Of a DNA stretch of 64,000 nucleotides, positions 1,406 through 55,528 are shown piece by piece (the stretch's first letter is position 1; the number at the start of each line of letters is the position of its first letter). The notes beneath the pieces are model-generated. The model made no database searches. It worked only from the letters and a program-made list of their open reading frames with translations, and was not told the DNA's origin. Source of the stretch: Eledone cirrhosa (Eukaryota); the NCBI GenBank assembly GCA_964016885.1, contig OZ024740.1, positions 193,564,001 to 193,628,000 of the forward strand. The letters run 5' to 3'. A program made the position numbers and the translations under genes.

Positions 1406-1487
1406 ACTTCCAACTAATTAGTTTCTGGAATGGAGTAAATATATTTTCCGATGAAGATATATAGAAACATTCCGTCGTCAGGGAAGT
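1406..1487 (-). ncRNA. Type I hammerhead ribozyme
   Basis: acttcc-CTGACGA-cggaatg...cattcca-GAAACTAATTAGTT-ggaagt: 6-bp helix I, long helix II and palindromic helix III. Confidence 0.8.
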
Positions 1488-2249: not shown

Positions 2250-2331
2250 ACTTCCCTGACGACGCAATGTTTCCATATATCTTCTTCGGAAAATATATTT
2301 ACTCCATTCCAGAAACTAATTTGTTGGAAGT
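2250..2331 (+). ncRNA. Type I hammerhead ribozyme (inverted copy)
   Basis: acttcc-CTGACGA...cattcca-GAAACTAATTTGTT-ggaagt. Confidence 0.75.
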
Positions 2332-2599: not shown

Positions 2600-5500
2600 A
2601 GATAAGTTTCTTTATTAGCCACAGGGGCAGAAAAGAACAGGACAAATACAAACGGGGAAGTTTACATACAATAAAAACGTGTAAAATGTTATCACAAATG
2701 CAATTTAAAAGGTTAGTCGATTTTCCCCAATAGTTTATATGGGTAACACATACCCCCGAAAAAATGTGCAACCCTCATCTCCAGGAGTACGAAGAGTTTG
2801 TACTCCTTTCCTCTCCTCCTCCTTTTCCTCAACCTACAGGCTGATATAGAGAGAAGGCCCATTCACTCGGGCCATTCTCGACACTTTCACCCACCTTTCA
2901 TAAAACTTGCTGGGGTACAGCACCTCTCTCTCCATCCTGATTATTCTTCCAAAATGGTATTTGAAAAAAAGAATCATTGTTGGCCGGAGAGAAAGGTGTC
3001 TGACCTCAGCCCTTTCAACCTTGTCCACCATACAACCTTTTTCGCCATAGCTATCACACAAAGGAAAACCGCCTCTCCTTCGCTTTTGAAGGAGGGTGGC
3101 GGTTTGATCATGACAATGGACTCGGTGGTCAACCGGATTGGTCCCACCCGGGACAATAGTCGTTCTACATAGCCCCACAGGTCAGTGACACCCGGGCAGT
3201 GTATGAATGCGTGCGCGATGGTTTATTTGTCTCGCACGCACCTCGGACAGATCTTTTTTGCAGGGTCCCTGCGCGCGCCCATGTCTGTAGAGCTTGTCTC
3301 GAACTGGTAGAGCTCCTTGGTAGCACTGCCAGGCCAGGTAGCACTGCCAGGCCAAGGACTTTTGGAAGTTGTCCATGGGTCCCGGGCGGAAGGTCCTACC
3401 GAACAGACTGGCCAGTTCATCTACCTCTAAGCCTAGAGTTTCACCGAGTGCGCCGTCGCACTTGCTGCGGATCAACCCTCTATAGAATGACGAAATGGAG
3501 TCTCCACTGATCGCCGGGTCCGCCTGCCTGAGGGCTGTGAACACCTGAGCACATTCGATGTGCCTGTTCCCCAGTTTCCTCGGTCTTTGCTTGACCCAGG
3601 ACTGCAGCTAGGTCAGCGAGACGAGTCATGGGAAGGCTCGCCTCATGAATGGGGCCCACACCGCATGTCCGGTGAGGAATACGTAGAGATGCCGCAGCCT
3701 GAGCGCGTGTTTGCGCATCGTCAACCACGGCATCCCCAGCCCTCCGTTAGAAGGGTGTTGGCAGCAGATGGATCTTCTCACCAAAGGATCCCGCCTCTTC
3801 CAAAGGAATTGGAAGAGCGCGCGTTCCATTTTGGCGAGCGTTTTGGCTGGACAAGGCACTACGGTCAAGCGGTAGTAGATGGTGGACGCTATAAAAGTGT
3901 TCTCCACCTCCGCTCGACCTTTCAAGGATAGTTTGCAGTCAGGCCCACTTCTGGGTGAGTGCAAACACCTTGGCCGTCACTTCGTTCCAGTTCTTCTCTA
4001 CCTGGAGGTTCGAACCAAACCAGACCCCGAGCAGCTTTACCGGTCCTTCCGTCCAGCGTCCGACGACGCCATCGGAAGGCATCGGTTTGCCTCTCCACGA
4101 TCCGAGTTGCAAACCGATGGACTTGTCCCGGTTCAGCTTCGCTCCTGTGAAACTTCCGTATCCTTCAGTAAGGTGCCGACTTCCTCGATTTCCGAGGTGC
4201 TCGACACCATTACTGGCACGTCGTCGGCGTAGGCCGACGCCGCTTTCCGCAGACCCGGTTCCAGAGGGATGCCCTGCAATAGCTCCAACTTCCGCAGTAG
4301 TGGCTCGAGAGTCAGTAAGTACAGAAGAGAGGAGAGAGGGAATCCCTGTCGAATGGATCGCGTAATATGGAACGGCTCCGAGAGGTTACCGTTCACCTTG
4401 ACCCTTGAGCAGATGTTGCTGTTGTTCATTGCAGCAATCCAGCCCCTGAACACGGGTCCGAAGCCTGCCGCCTCGAACACCGCATCCAGGTAACGATGAT
4501 CAACCTATCGAAAGCCTTAGACTGATCCAAGTTGATCTGGGCCCCACCGAAGCCGGGTTTGCATCCTACTCTCTCTATGATGTATCGCATGAGGTGGAGG
4601 TTGTCGTGTATGAACCTGGTCGGGATTGCGCATGTCTGCGCTTCTCCCACTAGGTTTCCGACAACAAGCACCAGCCTCTTTGCCAACACCTTGGCCAAAA
4701 TCTGTAACTCTGTGTTTAGCAGAGTTATGGGCCGGAAGTTGCCTATGTCATCCCCCTTATTCTCGTCCTTCCTGATTAGTGTGACTACGCCCCCGGTTAC
4801 ATAACTGGAAATTATCCCGTTCTGTTGCCAGTTGCAGTAGACCGCTTCCAGGAGACCGGAGAATAAGTCCGGCATTGCTACGTAAAATTCGTAGGGTAGA
4901 CCGTCGAGACCTCGAGATTTGCGTTTGCCGCATTGGCTCAGCGCGTCCCCTATCTCAGCGGCTGAAATCGGCTTTTCGCAGAACTTTGCCTCGCTGTCCG
5001 AGAGTCGCGGTAGGCCGTCGAGGTATGAACCGAAATCCATAGCCCCTCCCGGCGCGCCGCCCCGCCCGAACGGTTGAGCAAAGTGCCACTGAAAGGCCGC
5101 ACACATCTGCTTCGGCTCATATATCACGCGTCCGTTTTGGTCCTTCAAAGACCGAATCGTGGACTTCTTGCCACTTTTTCCCTCCGTCACTCGGGCCCAG
5201 CTAACAGCTTTGGCTCCCTCGTTTCCCAGAGCACGTATTTTGCTTCTGACGACGCAGCCCTCGTGCTTTGCGTCGAAGAACGGGTCCAAGTCCGTTCTCG
5301 TTGCTAGCACGCTGGTCACGTTGCCACTTCTAATTGCCTCTTCTACTTTATCTACCAGTTCCTTCGCGGTTCTATTTCTATCTAACGCTAATTATTTACT
5401 AAAATCTAAGGAGTCTAATCTAACTGCCCTCTTGAGAGAGTACCACCATCTGTTGTTGACAATGGCCCCTGTCAAGTGCTGTTTAACTAAAGTGCTAATC

Positions 5501-8232: not shown

Positions 8233-8457
8233 GTATGTATGTATGTATACCTATATACATATATGTATACAGACGTACAGTATTATGTATATATATATAC
8301 ATACATGCACACACATATATATATATGCACGTATCGGTTTACCGAACATTTATTATAATGCTAGGTTTGTTTGTTTGTAAACAAACAAACAGCCCGAATT
8401 ACGCCGTACAGTGTTTAGGCAACCACTTTACCTTTTTGTTCAACACTGACACAGGAA

Positions 8458-8498
8458 CGATGTACTAGTTTCAAGGTTATTAGCTATCGTCAGCATCG
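8458..8498 (-). ncRNA. Minimal type I hammerhead ribozyme
   Basis: cgatg-CTGACGA-tagctaataacctt-GAAACTAGTA-catcg. Confidence 0.8.
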
Positions 8499-8850
8499 TA
8501 TACTTTCCTGCCAGATGGTTGAATGTCTGAAAGTATGCATATTAACGGCTGAGCAGCTTAATTTGCATATCGAGTGAGTTCAGTCGGTCGGCAATCCGAA
8601 AACGATAAATGGAATAGAATAAAACGAAATTTCATTTCTCACTCTTATAATACGGCACTTACTTAAATGTAAGTATGTATACGTACATACATATATGTAT
8701 ACAGACGTACAGTAGCATGTATATATATAGATACATGCACACATATATATATATGCACGTATCGGTTTACCGAACACTTATTATAATGCTCGGTTTGTTT
8801 GTTTGTAAACAAACAAACAGCCCGAATTACGCCGTACAGTGTTTAGGCAA

Positions 8851-8891
8851 TGATGCTGACGATAGCTAATAAGCTTGAAACTAGTACATCG
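8851..8891 (+). ncRNA. Minimal type I hammerhead ribozyme
   Basis: tgatg-CTGACGA-tagctaataagctt-GAAACTAGTA-catcg. Confidence 0.82.
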
Positions 8892-9018
8892 TACCTGTGT
8901 CAGTGTTAAACAAAAAGGTGACGTGGTTGCCTAAACACTGTACAGCGTAATTCGGGCTGTTTGTTTGTATACAAACAAACAAACCGAGCATTATAATAAA
9001 TGTTCGGTAAACCGATAC

Positions 9019-9101
<83 letters not shown>

Positions 9102-9244
9102 TGTGTGTGTGTGAATGTATGTATATATATACATACTACTGTACGTCTGTATACATATATATATGTACGTATACATACATATATACTTTCATTTAAGTAA
9201 GTGCCGTACTAAGAGTGATAAATGAAATTTTGTTTCATTCTATT

Positions 9245-9327
<83 letters not shown>

Positions 9328-9885: not shown

Positions 9886-9943
9886 TACTGCTATATATAT
9901 TTCGATGATAGCCATTGAATGTCTATGACCTCATCAGGCAGTT
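9886..9943 (-). ncRNA. Type I hammerhead ribozyme at the 3' end of a Penelope-like remnant
   Basis: actgc-CTGATGA-ggtcatag...ctatcatc-GAAATATATATA-gcagt. Confidence 0.75.
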
Positions 9944-18599: not shown

Positions 18600-21500
18600 T
18601 TATTATTATTATTATTATTACAGCTGCATTTATCTTGATTTATGTTCATACGAGTTATCACCAAGTCACAACCAGTGACCTCAATAGACCACAAGGTCCG
18701 CCATGTTCAAGAAAGAACATACATACTCACACATGCATCTTTAGGTGTTTAGACTTGTGATGTACTTATATTGACAGAATCTTCCTTAGTATATGGGCAG
18801 TTCCCATTAGTAATATCTTTTGTATTTCTCCTATACGCGGCTTTCCTGGGATTTGCGATAAGTAATCATTAGACCCCTTAGGTATCATTCCCAGAGCGCC
18901 TACAACCACTGGTATTGTTTTATTTCTGAATTTCTACATTTTTCCAATTTCTCTCTCCAGGTCCTTATACTCGCTCAATTTTTCAAAGGTTGTTATAGAT
19001 AAATTCTTGCCTATTGGAACGGCATATCAATTAGCAGGCATACCATCTTTTTAAAGTCCTTCAATATTATATCAGGTCTACTTGCATTTATTTTTCGGTC
19101 TGTTTGGATGCTAAAGTTCCACAAGATTGAGATGTGATCTTTTTCAAGTATGGGAGGTGGTTGATGTTCCCACCAATTCTTTTGATGGGGCAGGTCAAAA
19201 TGCTTACACATTAATATAATCAATCCTTCAGTCTCCGATTTCAGTCCAGAGGATGCCAACCACTGATGGGTTAAAGTGTTGTCAACATCAGGATTGTTAG
19301 CTCGTTCTGGGTATTTTCCATACAGAGGCTTTTCTTTGCCATTTCTTAGCCAGTTTCTGTAGCAGTTCTTTCTTTGCAGTTACTTTTACCTGATTTGCTT
19401 TTTCTGTGTTTTCCATTTCAGAAGTAAATGGGACTTCTGTAATGTGTAGTCCATTACTGTATCTTTGTGCACCTTTTGTAATGGAGTATGATCTTTTGAT
19501 ACTTTCGTGTTTCAAAACGAGTTTGATCATCCGATCATGTGATTCCCTTAGATATGTAGATAATCCATTTGTTGCAGTTTTCAACGCAATGTCTAACTGG
19601 ATTAACCCACGTCCTCCTTCTTTCCTAGGGAGATATATTCTATCTGTATCTCCCTTAGGGTGATGCATTCTGTGCATGGTTAAGAATTTTCTAATTTTTG
19701 TATCGAGCCGAACAGATCTCTGTGCTTGACCAGTTGATGACATTGTAACTGCAGGTTACTACTGGTATGGCAAGCGTGTTTATGGCATCGATCCTATTCC
19801 TTGCATTCAATTCCGTTCTTAAGATTGCTCTTACTCTGCGGTAACATTCCTTCCTTATCATTTCCCTCATTGTCGAGTGCTTGATTCCGTCTCCTTCACA
19901 AACACCTAGATATTTGTAAGTTTCCTCTTGATCAAGTTCTCTTATCACATTCCCTCGATCAAGATTAATGTCTGAACTTTTCAGCAACTTTCCTCTGGTG
20001 AACGTTCCTTTGGCGCATATATCTAGTCCAAACTCCATTTTAATGTCATCACTGAACTGTTCCGCAGTGGATAATAGCCCTTGCAATTGTTCATCATTTT
20101 TTGCAAATAGTTTCAGGTCATCCATGTAGAACAAGTGATTAATGGTTTTGTCATAGACTTTATATCCATGTTTTGTTTCATTGAGCATTTTACTTAATGG
20201 TATAAGTGCGATGCAGAATAAAAGCGGTGATAAAGTCACCCTGAAAAATTCCACAATTAATATTAACTTCTCCAGCTTCCAGTGATTTTGTTTCACTATT
20301 CAAAAGGAGTGTCGTTTTCCATGTCTTCATACTGAATGACAAAAACCTCCTGACAACGGGAGATATTTTGAAAATCTCTAAACATTTTTCAATCCAACTG
20401 CGTGGCAAACTATCGAATGCTTTTTTATAATCTATCCAAGCAATTGATAGATTTTTGTGTCTATTATGACAATCTTCCAGTATCATTTTTTTAACCAAAA
20501 TCTGATCCTTACAGCCATATGAGCCTCGTTTACACCCTTTCTGCTCAATGGGAAATAGGTCATTTGTTATCAGGTGGTCATATGTATATTCAGTTAGGAC
20601 TGATGTTGAAATGTTATACATTGTGGTCAAGCAAGTTATCGGTCTCTAATTTTGGGGATTGTTTGTCTCATCATTCTTCGGAAGTAAGAATGTAATGCTG
20701 TTAACTAGCCATGATGGTATCTTTTCTGGCTCCTTAACTATTTCATTGTAAAGTTGGGCTAACAGCTCATGAGATTCTGGGAAGGCATTTATCCAAACAT
20801 TTTGTATTTTCTCTTTTCCTGGGGATTTCCATTTGCTGGTTTTTCTGAGAGCCAAACGCAACTGTTCAACTGTTATATTTTCCCATATTTGTTCCTCAAG
20901 GTGAGCTGTATCTTTCATTTGTCTGTCTATCCATGGGGCATGAATATTATGAACTTTTTCTTCGGCCCAGATCTTTTCCCAGAATTCTTGCACTTCCTCC
21001 TTGGGTGGTATTGATTTAGCAATTATTCTGTAGAATTTTCTTTGGTTGTTTTAGAACATATTATTGTCCTTATAGAATCTAGATCGTTTTTCAAAGCGCC
21101 TTATACGAGCAGCTTTGGCCGACACTTTTTGCTTGATTATTTCTATCAGCATGTCTATGTCACTTTTTGATTTTATACTGTATTTACTTTTCAATTTTCT
21201 AAGTTTAGTTAGTTTAACATGTTCACCTACTTTATAGTTTGTTAACATTTCTATGTCAGATCGGAGAAGGTTTATTTGGCGATTGATGTTCTCTTGCCAA
21301 GTAGATTCTTGTGGGAATTCCTTTCTTTTTTTCATTTTCACTCCACATAAGTGAGTGGTGAATTTAGCCGATGCATAATAGAGATGATTAAAATCAGTAA
21401 TGGTGAGTTTGTTTGTGATGATAATGTTTTTGAGAATTATGTTAGAGTTGTGTATTATCTTTTGGTTCTGTTTGGAGTTCTGGATCTTAGGGAGGGGGTC

Positions 21501-28779: not shown

Positions 28780-28838
28780 TTCCATTTACCAGTGGTTTCT
28801 TAAAAGTACAGAATTTTGCTTTCAATCATCAGAATGAA
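28780..28838 (-). ncRNA. Type I hammerhead ribozyme (Penelope pLTR)
   Basis: ttcatt-CTGATGA-ttgaaagca...tttaa-GAAACCACTGGTA-aatgga. Confidence 0.75.
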
Positions 28839-29732: not shown

Positions 29733-29809
<77 letters not shown>

Positions 29810-30013
29810 TATGTACACGTACATACATATATGTATACCGACGTACAGTAGTATGTATATATATATATACATACATGCACACATATATATATGCACGTAT
29901 GGATTCACCGAACATTTATTATAATGCTCGGTGTGTTTGTAAACAAACATCCCGTATTAAGCCGTAGTGTCTAGCAACCACCGTTGCTCGTTTGTTCAAC
30001 ACTGACAAAGGAA

Positions 30014-30054
30014 CGCTGTACTAGTTTCAAGCTTGTTAGCTATCGTCAGCAACG
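30014..30054 (-). ncRNA. Minimal type I hammerhead ribozyme (second minus copy at 30436-30476)
   Basis: cgttg-CTGACGA-tagctaacaagctt-GAAACTAGTA-cagcg. Confidence 0.85.
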
Positions 30055-30839
30055 TATACCTTCCTGCCAGATTGTTGAACGTATATACTTACCTTATGCA
30101 TATTAACGGCTGAGTAGCCCAATATGCATATCGAGTGGGTTAATCGGCCGGGTGCACCGAAAACGATAAACGGAAAAAATGAAACGATATTTCATTTCCC
30201 ACTCTTAGTACGGCTGTTACTTAAATATAAGTATGTACACGTACATACATATATGTATACCGACGTACAGTAGTATGTATATATATATATACATACATGC
30301 ACACATATATATATGCACGTATGGATTCACCGAACATTTATTATAATGCTCGGTGTGTTTGTAAACAAACATCCCGTATTAAGCCGTAGTGTCTAGCAAC
30401 CACCGTTGCTCGTTTGTTCAACACTGACAAAGGAACGCTGTACTAGTTTCAAGCTTGTTAGCTATCGTCAGCAACGTATACCTTCCTGCCAGATTGTTGA
30501 ACGTATATACTTACCTTATGCATATTAACGGCTGAGTAGCCCAATATGCATATCGAGTGGGTTAATCGGCCGGGTGCACCGAAAACGATAAACGGAAAAA
30601 ATGAAACGATATTTCATTTCCCACTCTTAGTACGGCTGTTACTTAAATATAAGTATGTACACGTACATACATATATGTATACCGACGTACAGTAGTATGT
30701 ATATATATATATACATACATGCACACATATATATATGCACGTATGGATTCACCGAACATTTATTATAATGCTCGGTGTGTTTGTAAACAAACATCCCGTA
30801 TTAAGCCGTAGTGTCTAGCAACCACCGTTGCTCGGTATA

Positions 30840-30880
30840 CGTTGCTGACGATAGCTAACAAGCTTGAAACTAGTACAGCG
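30840..30880 (+). ncRNA. Minimal type I hammerhead ribozyme (further plus copies at 31262-31302 and 31684-31724)
   Basis: cgttg-CTGACGA-tagctaacaagctt-GAAACTAGTA-cagcg: intact core, GUA cleavage triplet and palindromic ACTAGT helix III. Confidence 0.85.
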
Positions 30881-32099
30881 TTCCTTTGTCAGTGTTGAAC
30901 AAACGAGCAACGGTGGTTGCTAGACACTACGGCTTAATACGGGATGTTTGTTTACAAACACACCGAGCATTATAATAAATGTTCGGTGAATCCATACGTG
31001 CATATATATATGTGTGCATGTATGTATATATATATATACATACTACTGTACGTCGGTATACATATATGTATGTACGTGTACATACTTATATTTAAGTAAC
31101 AGCCGTACTAAGAGTGGGAAATGAAATATCGTTTCATTTTTTCCGTTTATCGTTTTCGGTGCACCCGGCCGATTAACCCACTCGATATGCATATTGGGCT
31201 ACTCAGCCGTTAATATGCATAAGGTAAGTATATACGTTCAACAATCTGGCAGGAAGGTATACGTTGCTGACGATAGCTAACAAGCTTGAAACTAGTACAG
31301 CGTTCCTTTGTCAGTGTTGAACAAACGAGCAACGGTGGTTGCTAGACACTACGGCTTAATACGGGATGTTTGTTTACAAACACACCGAGCATTATAATAA
31401 ATGTTCGGTGAATCCATACGTGCATATATATATGTGTGCATGTATGTATATATATATATACATACTACTGTACGTCGGTATACATATATGTATGTACGTG
31501 TACATACTTATATTTAAGTAACAGCCGTACTAAGAGTGGGAAATGAAATATCGTTTCATTTTTTCCGTTTATCGTTTTCGGTGCACCCGGCCGATTAACC
31601 CACTCGATATGCATATTGGGCTACTCAGCCGTTAATATGCATAAGGTAAGTATATACGTTCAACAATCTGGCAGGAAGGTATACGTTGCTGACGATAGCT
31701 AACAAGCTTGAAACTAGTACAGCGTTCCTTTGTCAGTGTTGAACAAACGAGCAACGGTGGTTGCTAGACACTACGGCTTAATACGGGATGTTTGTTTACA
31801 AACACACCGAGCATTATAATAAATGTTCGGTGAATCCATACGTGCATATATATATGTGTGCATGTATGTATATATATATATACATACTACTGTACGTCGG
31901 TATACATATATGTATGTACGTGTACATACTTATATTTAAGTAACAGCCGTACTAAGAGTGGGAAATGAAATATCGTTTCATTTTTTCCGTTTATATATAT
32001 ATATATATACATATATATGTTTAAAACTCAATCTTAGATAATTCATATGAACCTTATATAACTGCAAAATATACATATACATATATATAGTAATGTAAT

Positions 32100-32194
32100 A
32101 AACAACATAAGGCAATTATTCCATTCACCAGTGGTTTCTTAAATGCAAAAAATATTGCCTTCAATCATCAGAATGAAAAAAACCTGGTCTATCC

Positions 32195-32227
<33 letters not shown>

Positions 32228-33370
32228 TATACATATATATATATATATACACATACACATACATACACATACATTTTGGTATATGAAGGGTGAGGCAAAC
32301 AAAAATATAAGGAGGGGGTGACGGAGGGGGAGGTGACATATGTAAAGGTTAAATATAAGGGGAGATAAAGGAGAAAAAGAATACAAGAGTACAGAACGTG
32401 GATTCAGCAGGTAGAAAAAACCGTAGTAGAAGTAAAGAGCAGAGAAGGAGATCCAGGTGGTTGAGTTATCATTTGAATGTCAATCCAATTACAGATCAGA
32501 TGTGATTTCAGATGAGGATAATATCTGAAGATCTCGGTCTTTGAGTTTAGGCAAGCAGAAGTGGCTCTCAAGTTTTGCAAAATCCTATATTTTTCTGTGG
32601 TACACAAAGAACAATTCTTTGTGCCCCTTTGGTACTCTCTCGAATGGTCTAAGATAGACCAATCGATAGAGTACGGCATGTTACTATCCTTGAATTCCCA
32701 CACCTTACTTGCGAGGGCCGTTGTTGTTCGTTTATCGGAGTGCTTAAAAGAAGCAACATGTGAGTAAAACCTGGTTTTAAACCCGTCCTGGGTCACGCCG
32801 ACATATCGCTCACTCCTGGCTGGCTGGTTGTTGATTAACGGTGTTATTTTAGCCTCATAAACAACAGATTTGGTGTTACATTTACCCTGCAATGGGCATT
32901 CATCCGGCTTCCTGCAACTGCATCCTGGATTTGCACTCGTATGATTTGAACTAGTGATCTTCGACTTCATCGATGGGGAACAAGAGTAACTGATCTTAAC
33001 TAAGTTCCTATTAAATATCTTATAATATCTATGATTAGGAGGAAAATGTTTGTCTAAGAGTTCAAGGAATTTCCTTCCTACATTAGTTTGTACAGTTAGA
33101 GAGAAGGGGGGTGTGAACCAAATAATGTTCCTTTTCCTGTTATTGTGGCTAGTTTTAGGGGGGGGGGGTAGGTAAATAAAAAATGTTTTCTGCAAAACCG
33201 CTGTTCTTAAGGGCTTTATTACAATAAGGGGCGGCTTTATTAAAAATGTCTATAGACGAAGATAAGGTAGAAATCCTACAGCTAATGTTGGGAATAAGAT
33301 TATTAAAAACTATAGGGGGATGGCAATACTCTTTGTGTATATACTTAAGATTTTCATTAGGTTTATGATA
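32100..33370 (-). mobile_element. 5'-truncated Penelope-like element (GIY-YIG endonuclease, 3' UTR, hammerhead relic at 32119-32177)
   Basis: ORF 32404-33195 has RKRNIIWFTPPFS, CSCRKPDECPLQGKC, VVYEA..YVGVT..FKTRFYSH and CSLCTTEK. The hammerhead has a GTG triplet, which is probably inactive. Confidence 0.88.
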
Positions 33371-35269: not shown

Positions 35270-35922
35270 CAGTATCGGTAGAGGGTCGGACGCCATGCTT
35301 TGACGCATAGAGTTACGGCCCTTGTCATTCTGATTTCAAATCCCGCCGAGGTCAACTTTGCCTTTCATCCTTACGGGGTCGTTAAAATAAAGTACCAGTA
35401 TGCACTGGGTAATTGCTGGCCTTGTTCCAAAAGTAGAAACAATTATATAAGATTACGGTTTGATTGTAAACTGAATTGGCATTTGGTCTGAGTTCAAATC
35501 AAGCCGAGGTTAACTTTCCCTTTCATCCTTACGGGGTCAATAAAATAAAGTACCAGTAATGCACTGGTTAATTCCTGGCATTGTGCCCAAAGTAGAAACA
35601 ATTATATATGATTACGGTTTGATTGTAAACTGAATTGGCATTTGGTCTGAGTTCAAATCCCGCCGAGGTTAACTTTGCCTTTCATCCTTACGGGGTCAAT
35701 AAAATAAAGTACCAGTAATGCACTGGTTAATTCCTGGCATTGTGCCCAAAGTAGAAACAATTATATATGATTACGGTTTGATTGTAAACTGAATTGGCAT
35801 TTGGTCTGAGTTCAAATCCCGCCGAGGTTAACTTTGCCTTTCATCCTTACGGGGTCGATAAAATAAAGTACCAGTAATACACTGAATAATTGCTGGATTT
35901 GTGCCAAATGTAGAAACAATTA
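35270..35922 (+). mobile_element. SINE followed by three 159-bp tandem copies of its 3' part
   Basis: GATTACGGTTTGATTGTAAAC at 35451, 35610 and 35769, each followed by a B-box and the core. Confidence 0.82.
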
Positions 35923-36682
35923 TTTTATTTTAGATGATATAAATCTAGATATGCTCATTAATTAGTATTTTCAAATGCTTCATCGTTTAAGTGAAAGGAA
36001 AATTAGAAAAAAATGCGGACTGTATATAACAGATAGGAAGTGTAAAAATAAACCAAGTATGTGATATCTTCTGTTTTATATCGTTGAGTAATTGAACCCA
36101 ATGTCGATATGTGCATAGTTGAAACTACCTTAAGATGGATGCATTCAAATTTGAATAATTAGGAAACTTGAAATGCATCACATTTGGACACCTAGTTGGT
36201 GGTCTTTACATTGTGAGATTAATGCCTGGTATTTGGTAGGTGATTGGATGTAATCATACCTGGAGAGGAGATGGGTACCGCAAGGAGTAAATTGCCCTAG
36301 AAATGCCGTCTCTACTTACAGTTTCCCTATGACTCCATCATGAGTTATAGGTCCATGCATATATGTAAACCCAGAAAGCTTTTTAGAGAACACTTTGTGT
36401 GCGGATAAAAGATTTAAAGAAAGTTGTCAATCATATTTCCTTTCATTTACTGGTGTTCCTGTGAGTGATGATTTTAAGAAGAAAGCAAATATGTTCCAAA
36501 ATGTCGGCAAAATGAAAATTCAAATTCAGATATTCATACAGGGATTTCTGTTCTTGAAGAATTATAGAACTTTTAGGCATGCAAAGCTACATTACCTGAA
36601 TCTATTTGCCATCGAATGACTTTTACTATTTTTCTTTATAAACATCATGCCACAAAGCCCACTTGTTTGTTTTGGGGAGTAT

Positions 36683-43080: not shown

Positions 43081-43131
43081 TTTATTATACATATTTCGGA
43101 TGTACAACAGTACGTCCTCATCAGACGAAAT
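43081..43131 (-). ncRNA. Type I hammerhead ribozyme, inverted upstream of a Penelope body
   Basis: CTGATGA-ggacgtac-tgtt-gtacatcc-GAAATATGTA. Helix I is poor. Confidence 0.6.
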
Positions 43132-45153: not shown

Positions 45154-48100
45154 ATAGCGAATTTAGCAGGCCAAAGTTGCTGGGTGTCAGATCTGTCCGC
45201 TATGGTGACCCTGCAAATTTTCCAGACGGCATAGCTCCAACACCTCCAACACCTGCACCAACATCTATAGCACCTCTTTGTAGACGATATTGCGTGTCAT
45301 CCCTTGAGGAGTGTAAGCAAAAAGTCAATTCCTGCTCCATAAGCGGGAAAAGGCAACATAAAGTTGGCGATGGGAGAAGCATGGCTCCCCCAAATAGATG
45401 TCCGCCACCGACAATGTTTGCCCTTGTGACTTCTTAATGGACATGGCAAAACATGGTCTCACCGGAAATTGGGATCGCCGGAAATCGCACGTGATATCTG
45501 ACGCTGAGGGTTCTTCCTTGGAATGAAAACATTCTCCCCTCTCCTGCACCCCGTTACAATGGTGGCCTCATGCGAGTACCGTTGCACTGCTTTGGTGAAT
45601 ACAAGTTCCTTATTAGCATATTTGAACAGCCAACCCTAAGCTTAAGAATGTGATGTGGGAGCCCTGGTGGCTCAAGGGAATTTAATAACTCAACCGGATA
45701 GAAAACGATATCGTCGGGGTCTGACGTCCGGTCGATAGATTTGAAGATGTGTTCTTTACCGGGAATTTTCTCAATTAGCTGCTCGTTAATAAAATTAACG
45801 ATGGTATTTTTCGGAGCAAGGATGGCTCTTTCGCTGAGCCAATCGAGGTTTTTAAAGTTAGATGAGACATTAGGAAAAACTGCTTCCCAAAGGTCAGAAG
45901 GGCTGCTCACACATGTTGCACAGAGAGTCGATTGCTATGCCGCCCTTGTCATCCGCAGGGACCTTGCCGTCACCAAGTGCTAAAATATTCTGAGTAAATG
46001 CTGCAGACAGGTTGTCACAATGCAAATCAGCACGCATATTTGTGCTCATGTACAAACTCTTCACCTGGAGCCACAAGATGGACGACTTAAGACATGCACG
46101 CACTTCATCAACTCTTGTCCCTTTGGGGATGACAGGCAGCGTTTGCCGAAAATCCCCTGATAGCAGAAGGGTTACGCCGTAGAATCCCTAATGTCTTTCA
46201 GTGTCCTGTCCAATGCCTCAAGGGCACTCTTGTGTGCCATTGTGCACTCATCCCAAACAAGGATTAACATTTTTTGAGAACCAGAACTTCGTTTGGACTC
46301 TTGCTGATATTGCATGTTGGTGTCTCAGTTTTTACTAAATCCAAGGGGAGTTTAAAGGTTGAATGTCCTGTCCTGCCTCCCAGCAGCGATCCCGGACGAT
46401 GCAACGGCCAACGCAATTTTTCTCTCCTGAAGAATCTTAGCGAGAATCAATTTCGTTACATAAGATTGTCCGGTACCCCCAGGAGCATCGAGAAAGTAAA
46501 TACCCCCAGTCTGATTTTGAACCGCGTCAATGATCGTTAAATAGGCCAACCTTTGGTCCAACAGACGTTTGGGCTCATTTTCTTCTAAGTATTGGGAAAG
46601 AGAGTCGATGTCATATGCTGTTTCCCGCAACAAATCCGGGGCCAATGTGTTAGCTTCCTCTCTGACGGTTGACGGCAAGCCATACGTCGCCAACTCACTC
46701 TCACCCATGTCGAGGAGGGCGTCCTCGATATCAATGAGTGCCCTGTTGTAGATAATGTCGCTGTAACCAACTTCCACTGAAGTATACTGCAGATGAGCCA
46801 GGCGCAGGAAGTCCTCAGACATGAAGTCGCTGTACTTGACCCATAAAGATTTGGGATCACCCAATTCACACATTTGAAGCAAAATAGCAAAGAGTTCCCG
46901 TAGACCTTTAGGTGATTTCAAAAAAGCACCCTCTGCTAAAGTGGAATCCCATTGCGAATCATCTTCCAAAAGACCACGCTTAAAGACCCGGTACGTATCA
47001 CATATTTCTCCATCAACAGTTTTGAGGTCCTGAAAACTTTGTGGGCCTACAACTTTATGCAGAAGAAGGCGGAGATGAAAGCACTCATGCTGACTTGGGG
47101 GCACAGTGTAAACCCTTCCAAGACAGCTGTCAAATTTTACACCAGGATGTCTTTCAGCACTCTGACCTGACTTTCTTCGCACCCAAGTGTTTTTCGACCA
47201 TATAAAGTAGGATGGTACCTGGAAGTACACATTTGTTTACGCAAATGTATCGAACTGGCAAAGTTTGAAAAAACCCGTGAGAGTGGTCTCTTTCGGATCA
47301 GCGGCCAACTTGGCGGCGGTTTGGTCCTTAAAGTAAACCATTTGCCCATTTTCCAAATGTACCGCAAGCTGTACGATGGCGGGGTGGCGTTGTTGTAGGG
47401 GTAAACCAAGTAGGCACCAAAAAACTTCATTGCTACTGATGTACCGCTCCGCCAGGTATGCTGTGATCTCGTCCCTGCTATTTTCAGCTTGAAATGCGAA
47501 CATTGAGGCATCAGAGCCCATATTTACATGTTTGCATATGTATTTTATCGACTTGACGGAGTTGCAGAACTCAACGTTGATGTGGGCGTTGAACATCTTC
47601 AAGAGAAGCGGGCAAGAAGGGACCACCCATCTATTGTCGATTTGACCCCTCCCCCCTTACTGTTGTGGTGAAGCCATCGTTCTCAGGCCGTCTCCGACTG
47701 TACAAGGGGTACCCGTCGCCACCAGTCTGAGTCTGGTCAACAAATTTTTGGGGGTATCCCTTACTGCACGACCTCCGCCCCTTTGAGACACGTGTGATGC
47801 TCCTTAGGAACCGACGCACACGGACCATGAATCATGTTACCTTTGATGATGTCATGTAATTCCTGGTCAGTTGCTGGGTTAGGGATTTCAGCCGAAATGA
47901 AGCTGTCTATGGCATTTGGATTGATTTTATCAGCTAACCAAATCAAAATGTGAGCATGTGGCAGCCCTCAGTATTTGACATTCGACGGTGAACATGTCAT
48001 ATTTTACAGCTCCAAATACCTGACCGTTTTTATTAAAGCCATGAGTTTAGCCAGTTTCAGTCTGAACACTCTGGCAATGAGATCATGTCTGTTAGAATAA

Positions 48101-54287: not shown

Positions 54288-55528
54288 TATATACAATGAT
54301 ATTAAATAATGGAAACTATATTTATAAAACCATATTTATTCTATTATATATATTTCAAGGGTACCAACATTTTGGTACGCTATCATCAGATAAAATACGA
54401 AGTGTGTTTTATAAATTCTGACATAACCAAGGAGAATATATCTTAAGGGTTCAAGTTTTCCTTGGATAGTGAATAAAAGTCAGATATTTCAAATTATTAA
54501 GATGAGTATGCAAATGAGGTTTAGGTAAAAGGGATGAAAAAAAAAACGTTATTTTAGAGGCTATGGAAAATTTAAATAATTATGATAAGTTATTTGATGA
54601 GTAGGAAAGAAGAGAAAGCTAGCATTTACGTTAATTTTGGGGAAAAGTGGAATATGATTCCAGAGTTTAAATTTGAATTTATTTACCTATATTATGAGTT
54701 ATAATATTGTATATATAATCAATTAGATTATATGAAGAATTATGGTTGTAAGTATTTTTATCTTATTACATTACGATAGGTTATATGTATATAAATATCT
54801 ATATAGATTAATAATTGCGTATGTATTAATATTATAGAGATAGAGATAATTTACAATTATTAGTTGTTTATATATCAAATATGAGTTACGAAGAAAGTTG
54901 ATTTTGTATTTTACTTAAAAATAGGTGGTTCAATTTGTGAGAGTAGAACAATTTGTGGATTTAAAAATGTTGTTCAACATTGAAAATGTTTTCAGGATAT
55001 TGTTAATTTAGCGAAGTTATTATCAAACATGATATGTTTATGTTTGCACGATTGAGAGAGGAAAGATAACTCCAATTTTGTTTGTCAACCGTTAAATTTG
55101 ATGAGTGATTTACTTCAAAATATATAGAGAAAATTATATATTATTTCGTATGAGATCCATTATTTAGTCGAAAGATGTGTGAATGTTTGAATAACAAAGA
55201 GAGAGAGAGAGGAAAAATGTAATGTGCTTCACGAAGATCTATCGTAAAGAGGATAAGTTTTCAGAATGTCAAATAAAGATTATCAATCTACATCTAAAAA
55301 TATATTTAGAGGGGTGTCCTTAGAAATATAATGTCAGAATTAAAATAATGTCGGAAATTAAAATATTAAATATATATATTCTCCTTAATTATGTCAAAAT
55401 TTATAAAACACACTTCGTATTTTACCTGATGATAGCGTACCGAAATGTTGATACCATTGAAATATATATAATAGAATAAATATGGTTTTATAAATATAGT
55501 TTCCATTTATTTAATATCATTGTATATT
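54288..55528. mobile_element. Head-to-head inverted pLTR-like pair with hammerheads at 54338-54396 (-) and 55419-55477 (+)
   Basis: About 150-bp inverted repeats (54288-54441 and 55374-55528), with attttat-CTGATGA-..gtaccaa..ttggtac..-GAAATATATATA-atagaat. Confidence 0.78.

Follow-up and report, generated by a model that had tools for sequence, protein, structure and literature searches.

A 422-nt non-coding tandem element with hammerhead motifs in Eledone cirrhosa, and repeated A>G marks suggesting a circular RNA template

The window analysed here, a stretch of 64,000 nucleotides of the Eledone cirrhosa genome (contig OZ024740.1, positions 193,564,001 to 193,628,000), contains two arms of one tandem repeat, placed back to back within a microsatellite and carrying a hammerhead motif in each repeat unit. 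The locus raises the question of what kind of element builds such an array, and from which template several identical units are written into both strands of a single site.

Layout of the array and its hammerhead motif

Two methods, Tandem Repeats Finder and a direct test for periodicity, give the array a period of 422 nt and an identity of 100% over both arms, and the comparison of all its units revealed no variants. Units are numbered from the first base past the predicted cleavage site (window 31298 = 1). The inverted arm (29803..30834, minus strand) comprises 2.45 units, from an inner 5′ end at unit position 29 to an outer 3′ end at 216 (the short fixed end); the forward arm (30834..31994, plus strand) comprises 2.75 units, from a 5′ end at 381 to a 3′ end at 275 (the long fixed end). 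Complete monomers, from predicted cut to predicted cut, occupy 31298..31719 (plus; 422 nt, 38% GC), 30876..31297 (plus) and, in the minus arm, 30019..30440 (minus). The two fixed 3′ ends are separated by 59 nt (unit 217–275), a tail present at one outer end only (31936..31994, plus). Both outer ends adjoin the (TA)n target, which lies at 29757..29802 on the left and 31995..32012 on the right, and inside which target-site duplications are not definable. The tandem unit has stops in every frame, a longest Met-initiated ORF of 51 aa, 38% GC and no LTR layout. We read the window array as a single, recent insertion belonging to an abundant non-coding element whose 422-nt units each contain a hammerhead motif. 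An older related copy, about 80% identical and likewise arranged minus then plus, is found at 8235..9252, with hammerheads at 8469–8493 (minus) and 8856–8880 (plus).

Five type I hammerhead motifs were located. On the plus strand these are 30839..30881 (core 30845–30869, predicted cut after 30875), in which helix I is without its distal extension; 31246..31314 (core 31267–31291, predicted cut after 31297), with an extended helix I; and 31668..31736 (core 31689–31713, predicted cut after 31719). On the minus strand they are 30424..30492 (core 30447–30471) and 30002..30070 (core 30025–30049). The core is identical in all five, and the cut sites were placed from the hammerhead consensus. Helices I and II of the motif measure 6 and 4 bp, and helix III is short and palindromic, an anatomy matching that of the type I animal hammerheads in the available text of PMC4209133.

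The assignment is based on the conserved core and on covariation. The catalytic core does not vary in 14 of 14 aligned sequences, drawn from subfamilies and from a sister family with 65% identity, and 9 of 23 helix pairs are altered on both sides in this set, with helix I paired in 97.6% of cases against 33–45% in slid controls; since the 14 sequences are related by descent, shuffle counts are not to be read as probabilities. In the 422-nt family a U.U stands under helix II in place of the usual G10.1-C11.1; two of three rows of the sister family have G-C there. In the natural tandem, helices I and II are predicted, whereas helix III is predicted neither in cis nor in trans, its pair probability being close to 0 in monomer and tandem folds. 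The monomer folded as a circle has a predicted energy of −146 kcal/mol, compared with −98.7 ± 5.3 for 60 shuffles (z −8.9), and the predicted monomer fold joins its two ends within helices I and III. Ribozyme activity of the unit is plausible, probably with the assistance of a dimer or a protein, although the U.U under helix II might compromise self-cleavage. Among Xenopus retrozymes, one of nine predicted dimers cleaved in vitro, according to the available text of 10.64898/2026.07.22.740005. A splice-donor-like motif in the unit was dropped as a functional feature, as it is gone from older subfamilies.

An earlier reading of the window, made from its sequence only, had described a palindromic array of five identical intact hammerheads spaced 422 bp apart in each arm, two minus and three plus, in a unit without credible ORF lying in (TA)n. 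The cores and the 100% periodicity confirm the number, spacing and orientation of the motifs, and the ORF content and (TA)n junctions given above agree with the remainder. The term palindromic needs correction: the arms are unequal in length and phase (inner ends 29/381, outer ends 216/275), so the array is a back-to-back pair and not a true mirror palindrome. Likewise, "intact" has to be qualified by the U.U under helix II and by a helix III that is not predicted in the monomer; the first plus-strand motif, moreover, is missing its helix I extension. The Infernal search with hammerhead models that this reading had proposed gave no Rfam match in the window at the gathering threshold or at E<=10; the matches at E<=10 to other models were AT-repeat microRNA noise and one weak tRNA match elsewhere.

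Other hammerhead-like cores occur in the window at 1445–1481 (minus) and 2256–2292 (plus), 54353–54389 (minus) and 55426–55445 (plus), 43094–43124 (minus) and 9900–9937 (minus); the first two pairs have the same back-to-back orientation as the array. They are likely the ends of other families of Penelope-like elements (PLEs). The window also holds a 159-bp SINE-like unit in tandem at 35329–35923 (3.7 copies, 94% alike) and fragments matching a PIF1-like helicase and reverse transcriptases at 46355–47236, 4429–5391 and 19694–20299, all on the minus strand. In sampled loci from elsewhere, the sister family has a 466-nt unit that ends in (TA)n, shows about 65% identity in the region of the hammerhead and has, for the most part, the canonical G10.1-C11.1 (L115:200–1400, L065:6300–7300, L094:560–1140). 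A separate 310-nt tandem hammerhead family (L036:6900–8300), with a back-to-back layout and U.U under helix II, is a candidate second retrozyme family.

Copies across the genome and the Penelope-like signature

Searches of the 3.0 Gb genome with the hammerhead motif returned 1,809 matches to an exact 37-mer and 24,691 to a degenerate 30-mer, with 0 for reversed controls. For the study of complete loci, 88 stretches were mapped in detail and 20 were scanned (108 in total, 899 kb), a non-random sample taken mostly from contig C1. Among 187 arms, 82 have the 3′ end at 266–275, 48 at 209–218 and 57 elsewhere, many of the latter being places where mismatches shortened the mapping. When only arms directly abutting (TA)n are considered, 101 of 105 end at 209–218 or 271–275, and arm ends show 2–5 nt of TA microhomology to the target. 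The 88 stretches include 58 back-to-back pairs, 15 of them with an unclassifiable end; one short end is combined with one long end in 39 of the 43 classifiable pairs (38 of 42 after removal of a duplicated locus, p=6e-8).

The same ends were recovered from independent sequencing runs, whose contigs present loose ends into (TA)n exactly at 31513 and 31572 (unit 216 and 275) as well as strand-switch joints. The 275 end recurs in three further runs, and both fixed ends are also found in runs labelled as another organism and in a diverged subfamily. Old arrays of 15–36 units exist, and long older satellites derived from the unit, with 15–36 or more units, were observed in L049, in L051, L078 and L079, in L081 and in L092, the last with a period of about 770 bp that includes foreign sequence.

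The insertion signature of PLEs, as given in the available text of PMC8557442, consists of partial tandems, an adjacent inverted 5′-truncated copy and a tail at one end. In vitro, the PLE tail reflects two internal start sites of the reverse transcriptase (RT), and cutting and extension take place on both strands of the target (PMC11167929). The 59-nt gap between the fixed ends of the 422-nt family would fit two such start sites. As for coding sequence, the long-end motif was followed in 344 cases: in 264 it is succeeded by more of the unit, in 73 by (TA)n and in seven by what looks like variant unit sequence, and none leads to an ORF; moreover, no ORF with RT and GIY-YIG domains is joined to the unit in the 108 stretches. 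The absence of copies running into an ORF indicates that the element is non-autonomous, and we classify the family, with high confidence, as a non-autonomous PLE-type retrozyme. Its mobilisation in trans by a PLE is supported by the fixed two-ended tail and the inverted arm.

It could still be supposed that the array is the plain 5′-truncated pLTR end of an autonomous PLE, since its layout is the usual PLE layout and the sample is limited to 108 stretches, or that it is an assembly fold-back. Both are extremely improbable. Some arms extend over at least 20 whole units and contain no coding sequence, and the link to an ORF is absent in those stretches; a fold-back is excluded by the asymmetric arms at many loci together with the same ends and strand-switch joints in independent runs. 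The sequence-only reading had named a plain pLTR and a fold-back as findings that would refute it, and neither was borne out. Its description of a young, non-coding, dispersed element with type I hammerheads and a palindromic helix III stands, and its proposal of mobilisation in trans by a Penelope RT is supported; as to the count of genomic copies that it had suggested, the 24,691 degenerate motif matches point to a large family.

No autonomous partner sharing the unit sequence was found in the 108 stretches (899 kb, a small sample) or among the loose ends listed, and the loose ends listed from four more sequencing runs gave no well-supported alternative continuation. A truncated PLE ORF at 32404–33249 (minus), which we take from its motifs to be Poseidon-like, adjoins the array and has its own, different hammerhead. 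Copies of this hammerhead region at 32135–32171 and 28796–28832 (both minus) flank the array, which sits in the microsatellite between two hammerhead regions of the neighbouring PLE. This ORF, the PLE ORF in L068 and L072 and the PLE beside L122 and L123 were rejected as partners, because they have hammerheads of their own or are separated from the unit by (TA)n. The PLE observed at L068:1–2200, L072:5020–6470 and L131 has its own hammerhead and likewise ends in (TA)n; it is presumably Neptune-like, judging by its motifs, and is a candidate source of the enzyme.

A>G changes and the template of the arrays

In locus L102, 40 A>G changes were found on the hammerhead-sense strand, compared with five other changes and no T>C. 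The 5′ neighbour is U or A at 36 of 38 counted edited sites but at 36 of 72 unedited ones (p=8e-7), and ADAR prefers U or A at this position. Edited loci were chosen through one A>G site. Of 41 loci with A384G, 11 show additional A>G within one 35-mer, whereas the mirror T>C control gives 1 of 23; at least three A>G are present in 7 of 40 non-duplicate loci and in 0 of 23 for the control. The comparison gives p=0.04 with a control that has fewer mutable sites (6 vs 11). Array-fixed rare alleles are A>G in 34 of 51 cases and singletons in 56 of 445, in a set that is enriched by selection and excludes 14 stretches for being large, duplicated or compound; in unselected loci the values are 3 of 4 and 22 of 167 (p=0.01). 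The single-site strand test showed no clear bias (97 matches for A97G; T98C in the majority among 100 of 119 matches listed), and A97G was rejected as an editing marker for this reason. The clustering of sense-strand A>G changes in an ADAR-like context points to an RNA template, and the family has almost certainly spread through an RNA intermediate. We infer that ADAR caused the clusters.

These changes recur from unit to unit. In L082, which has an arm of 5.8 units, nine A>G changes are repeated in each unit covering them, and the haplotype has no other match in the genome assembly. If the units of a linear transcript were edited independently, the chance of a match at seven informative sites would be about 1e-4 per unit from site rates, or 6e-10 with unedited sites included. 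Apart from L082, edits are shared in 25 of 44 comparisons within loci (57%) and in 276 of 2,715 between loci (10%). The allele A344T provides a similar mark: eight of its 15 genome matches, against 3,956 for the common allele, are units of both arms of L048, and the other seven form no array like that of L048. Private alleles also span both inverted arms in L113, and one length variant is common to a 20.7-unit arm and its partner. The inner ends show no relation to the predicted cut site (4 of 116 nearby, 3.0 expected), and 372 crossings of this site contain a single indel, which argues that the RT met no free end there. Homogeneous marks and seamless crossings together favour a closed monomer circle, which was probably the usual template. 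On balance, we lean towards reading the ADAR edits as barcodes of one 422-nt circle read repeatedly, from two start sites, into both arms.

Other loci are heterogeneous. In L103, none of three edits is common between units; in L106 the arms share 7 of 12; and L041, L065 and L071 have mixed units. Multimers, or two separate molecules, must therefore have served as template in some cases, and a minority of templates look multimeric. L080:2515–6833 and L084:2355–4273 contain two alternating haplotypes with a period of 842, which may come from dimer templates or from dimer duplication at the DNA level. L080 looks like the latter in an older array, and the period-2 arrays were consequently set aside as proof of dimer circles. 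Old arrays are also altered at the DNA level. Arm length has no significant relation to age in the unbiased set, from which loci selected by BLAST were removed (rho −0.12, p=0.30); the trend of the full set (p=0.002) is lost with that removal and was not used as support.

The observations would be accommodated by the following cycle. Adjacent hammerheads in a read-through transcript, probably paired into dimers by the palindromic helix III, would cut the RNA, and the monomer would be ligated into a structured circle that ADAR sometimes edits. A PLE endonuclease/RT would open the (TA)n target, and each DNA end would prime cDNA inside the RNA, one at about 216 and the other at about 275, by 2–5 nt of TA microhomology. 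Both cDNAs would then circle the RNA for a variable distance and their far ends would be joined, leaving arms that stand back to back, their outer ends fixed and their inner junction random. We consider it likely that a PLE RT copied a circular RNA monomer for several rounds in this way; cleavage, ligation, twin priming and the identity of the enzyme are what we infer from the arrays. An RNA stage and a circular template gain support from genomic marks that were not available to the sequence-only reading.

An uncleaved linear read-through multimer may be imagined as the template instead, in which case the arrays would be homogeneous because the parent array was, and the hammerhead would be incidental. 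Unprocessed RNA is in fact the dominant PLE substrate in vitro, and hammerhead mutants had no effect on insertion of an anole PLE in that system (PMC11167929). Random inner ends and seamless crossings are expected here as well, and the heterogeneity of L103, L041 and similar loci agrees with it directly. However, the units of such a transcript would be edited independently, which for L082 leaves the match of about 1e-4 per unit; no parent array for L082 or L048 is present in the assembly; and the hammerhead covaries across subfamilies and the sister family. We regard this template as unlikely to be the usual one. A cleaved but unligated monomer, its ends held by folding while the RT jumps the nick on the same molecule, would yield equally homogeneous arrays, and the predicted fold does join the ends in helices I and III. 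Template jumps usually leave scars, though, and the cut site has neither an excess of arm ends nor more than the one indel in 372 crossings, which makes this variant very improbable.

Alternatively, short PLE insertions could have been enlarged afterwards by tandem amplification and gene conversion of the DNA, as in satellites. This view is put forward in the available text of 10.64898/2026.07.22.740005, and local expansion is visible in the perfect dimer repeats of L080 and the large old arrays L049, L051 and L081. On the other hand, the smallest direct-repeat seed from which L082 could expand (1.8 units) already holds eight of the nine edits twice, so later expansion is an insufficient explanation. 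Private alleles lie in both inverted arms of L048 and L113. Multimers are already present among the youngest arms, 10 of 22 having two or more units, and no growth of arms with age is seen. Amplification of DNA is accordingly an improbable origin of the arrays, somewhat less so than the nicked monomer and more so than the linear multimer, and the circular monomer remains the reading that we prefer.

Relation to retrozymes and Penelope-like elements

The retrozyme class is already known, and the 422-nt family is a new member of it. No description of the family in cephalopods was found in literature listings, and no account was found of retrozymes with ADAR, of rolling-circle Penelope or of edited genomic retro-copies, in a search that left subscription journals mostly outside. 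The new point is mechanistic: editing marks repeated unit after unit suggest that one RNA circle was reverse-transcribed. The origin of tandem and inverted PLE insertions and the role of retrozyme circles as templates are stated as open in PMC11167929 and in the available text of 10.64898/2026.07.22.740005, PMC8557442 and PMC7229834. The family joins both questions, as a retrozyme with the full PLE insertion signature and thousands of young copies, whose internal barcodes separate the circle, linear-multimer and DNA-amplification models. In addition, its unit offers in vitro priming assays a minimal substrate whose start sites are mapped, and the marks suggest that ADAR editing of a mobile RNA was written back into the germ line. 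If it is true that one circle was read into both arms, the genome would preserve a fossil record of rolling-circle, twin-primed retrotransposition from a covalently closed RNA. The circular intermediate, a proposal made for retrozymes and PLEs since 2014, would then have direct support from genomic sequence, and the approach could serve as a general test in any editing-rich genome.

Non-LTR retrozymes are recognised as tandem units of about 150–450 nt with a type I hammerhead in each, and the 422-nt array has this form. The metazoan members, in the available texts of Cervera and de la Pena 2020 (PMC7229834) and Li et al. 2026 (10.64898/2026.07.22.740005), are alike in their non-coding tandem units of a few hundred nt, which have low GC and a single type I hammerhead each, in the circle predicted to be structured, in copy numbers in the thousands and in the co-occurrence of PLEs. 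The inverted second arm and the fixed paired 3′ ends distinguish the 422-nt family, as those texts give no account of them. Retrozyme circles were shown there by Northern blot; for the present family the circle is a proposed template. A circular template for cDNA longer than the unit is a hypothesis in the corresponding parts of PMC4209133 and PMC7229834, and the available text of 10.64898/2026.07.22.740005 argues that non-LTR retrozymes derive from PLE pLTRs and favours local amplification.

Among PLEs, the non-autonomous Chlamys elements such as MRC1 also form multicopy head-to-tail insertions moved by a PLE, but their clade, as described in the available text of PMC8557442, is without canonical hammerheads and shares its 3′ sequence with a known autonomous family, whereas no partner was found for the 422-nt family. 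Endonuclease PLEs (PMC11167929, and the available texts of PMC8557442 and PMC4209133) have in common with it the partial tandems, the adjacent inverted 5′-truncated copy, the one-ended tail, the AT-rich or microsatellite targets and a hammerhead with a short palindromic helix III. The 422-nt family differs from them in having no ORF, in a repeat that is the entire element and in both arms reaching up to many units; its tail measures 59 nt, compared with the 30–40 nt reported for PLEs, and its ends show TA microhomology, whereas the anole PLE is reported to start without homology.
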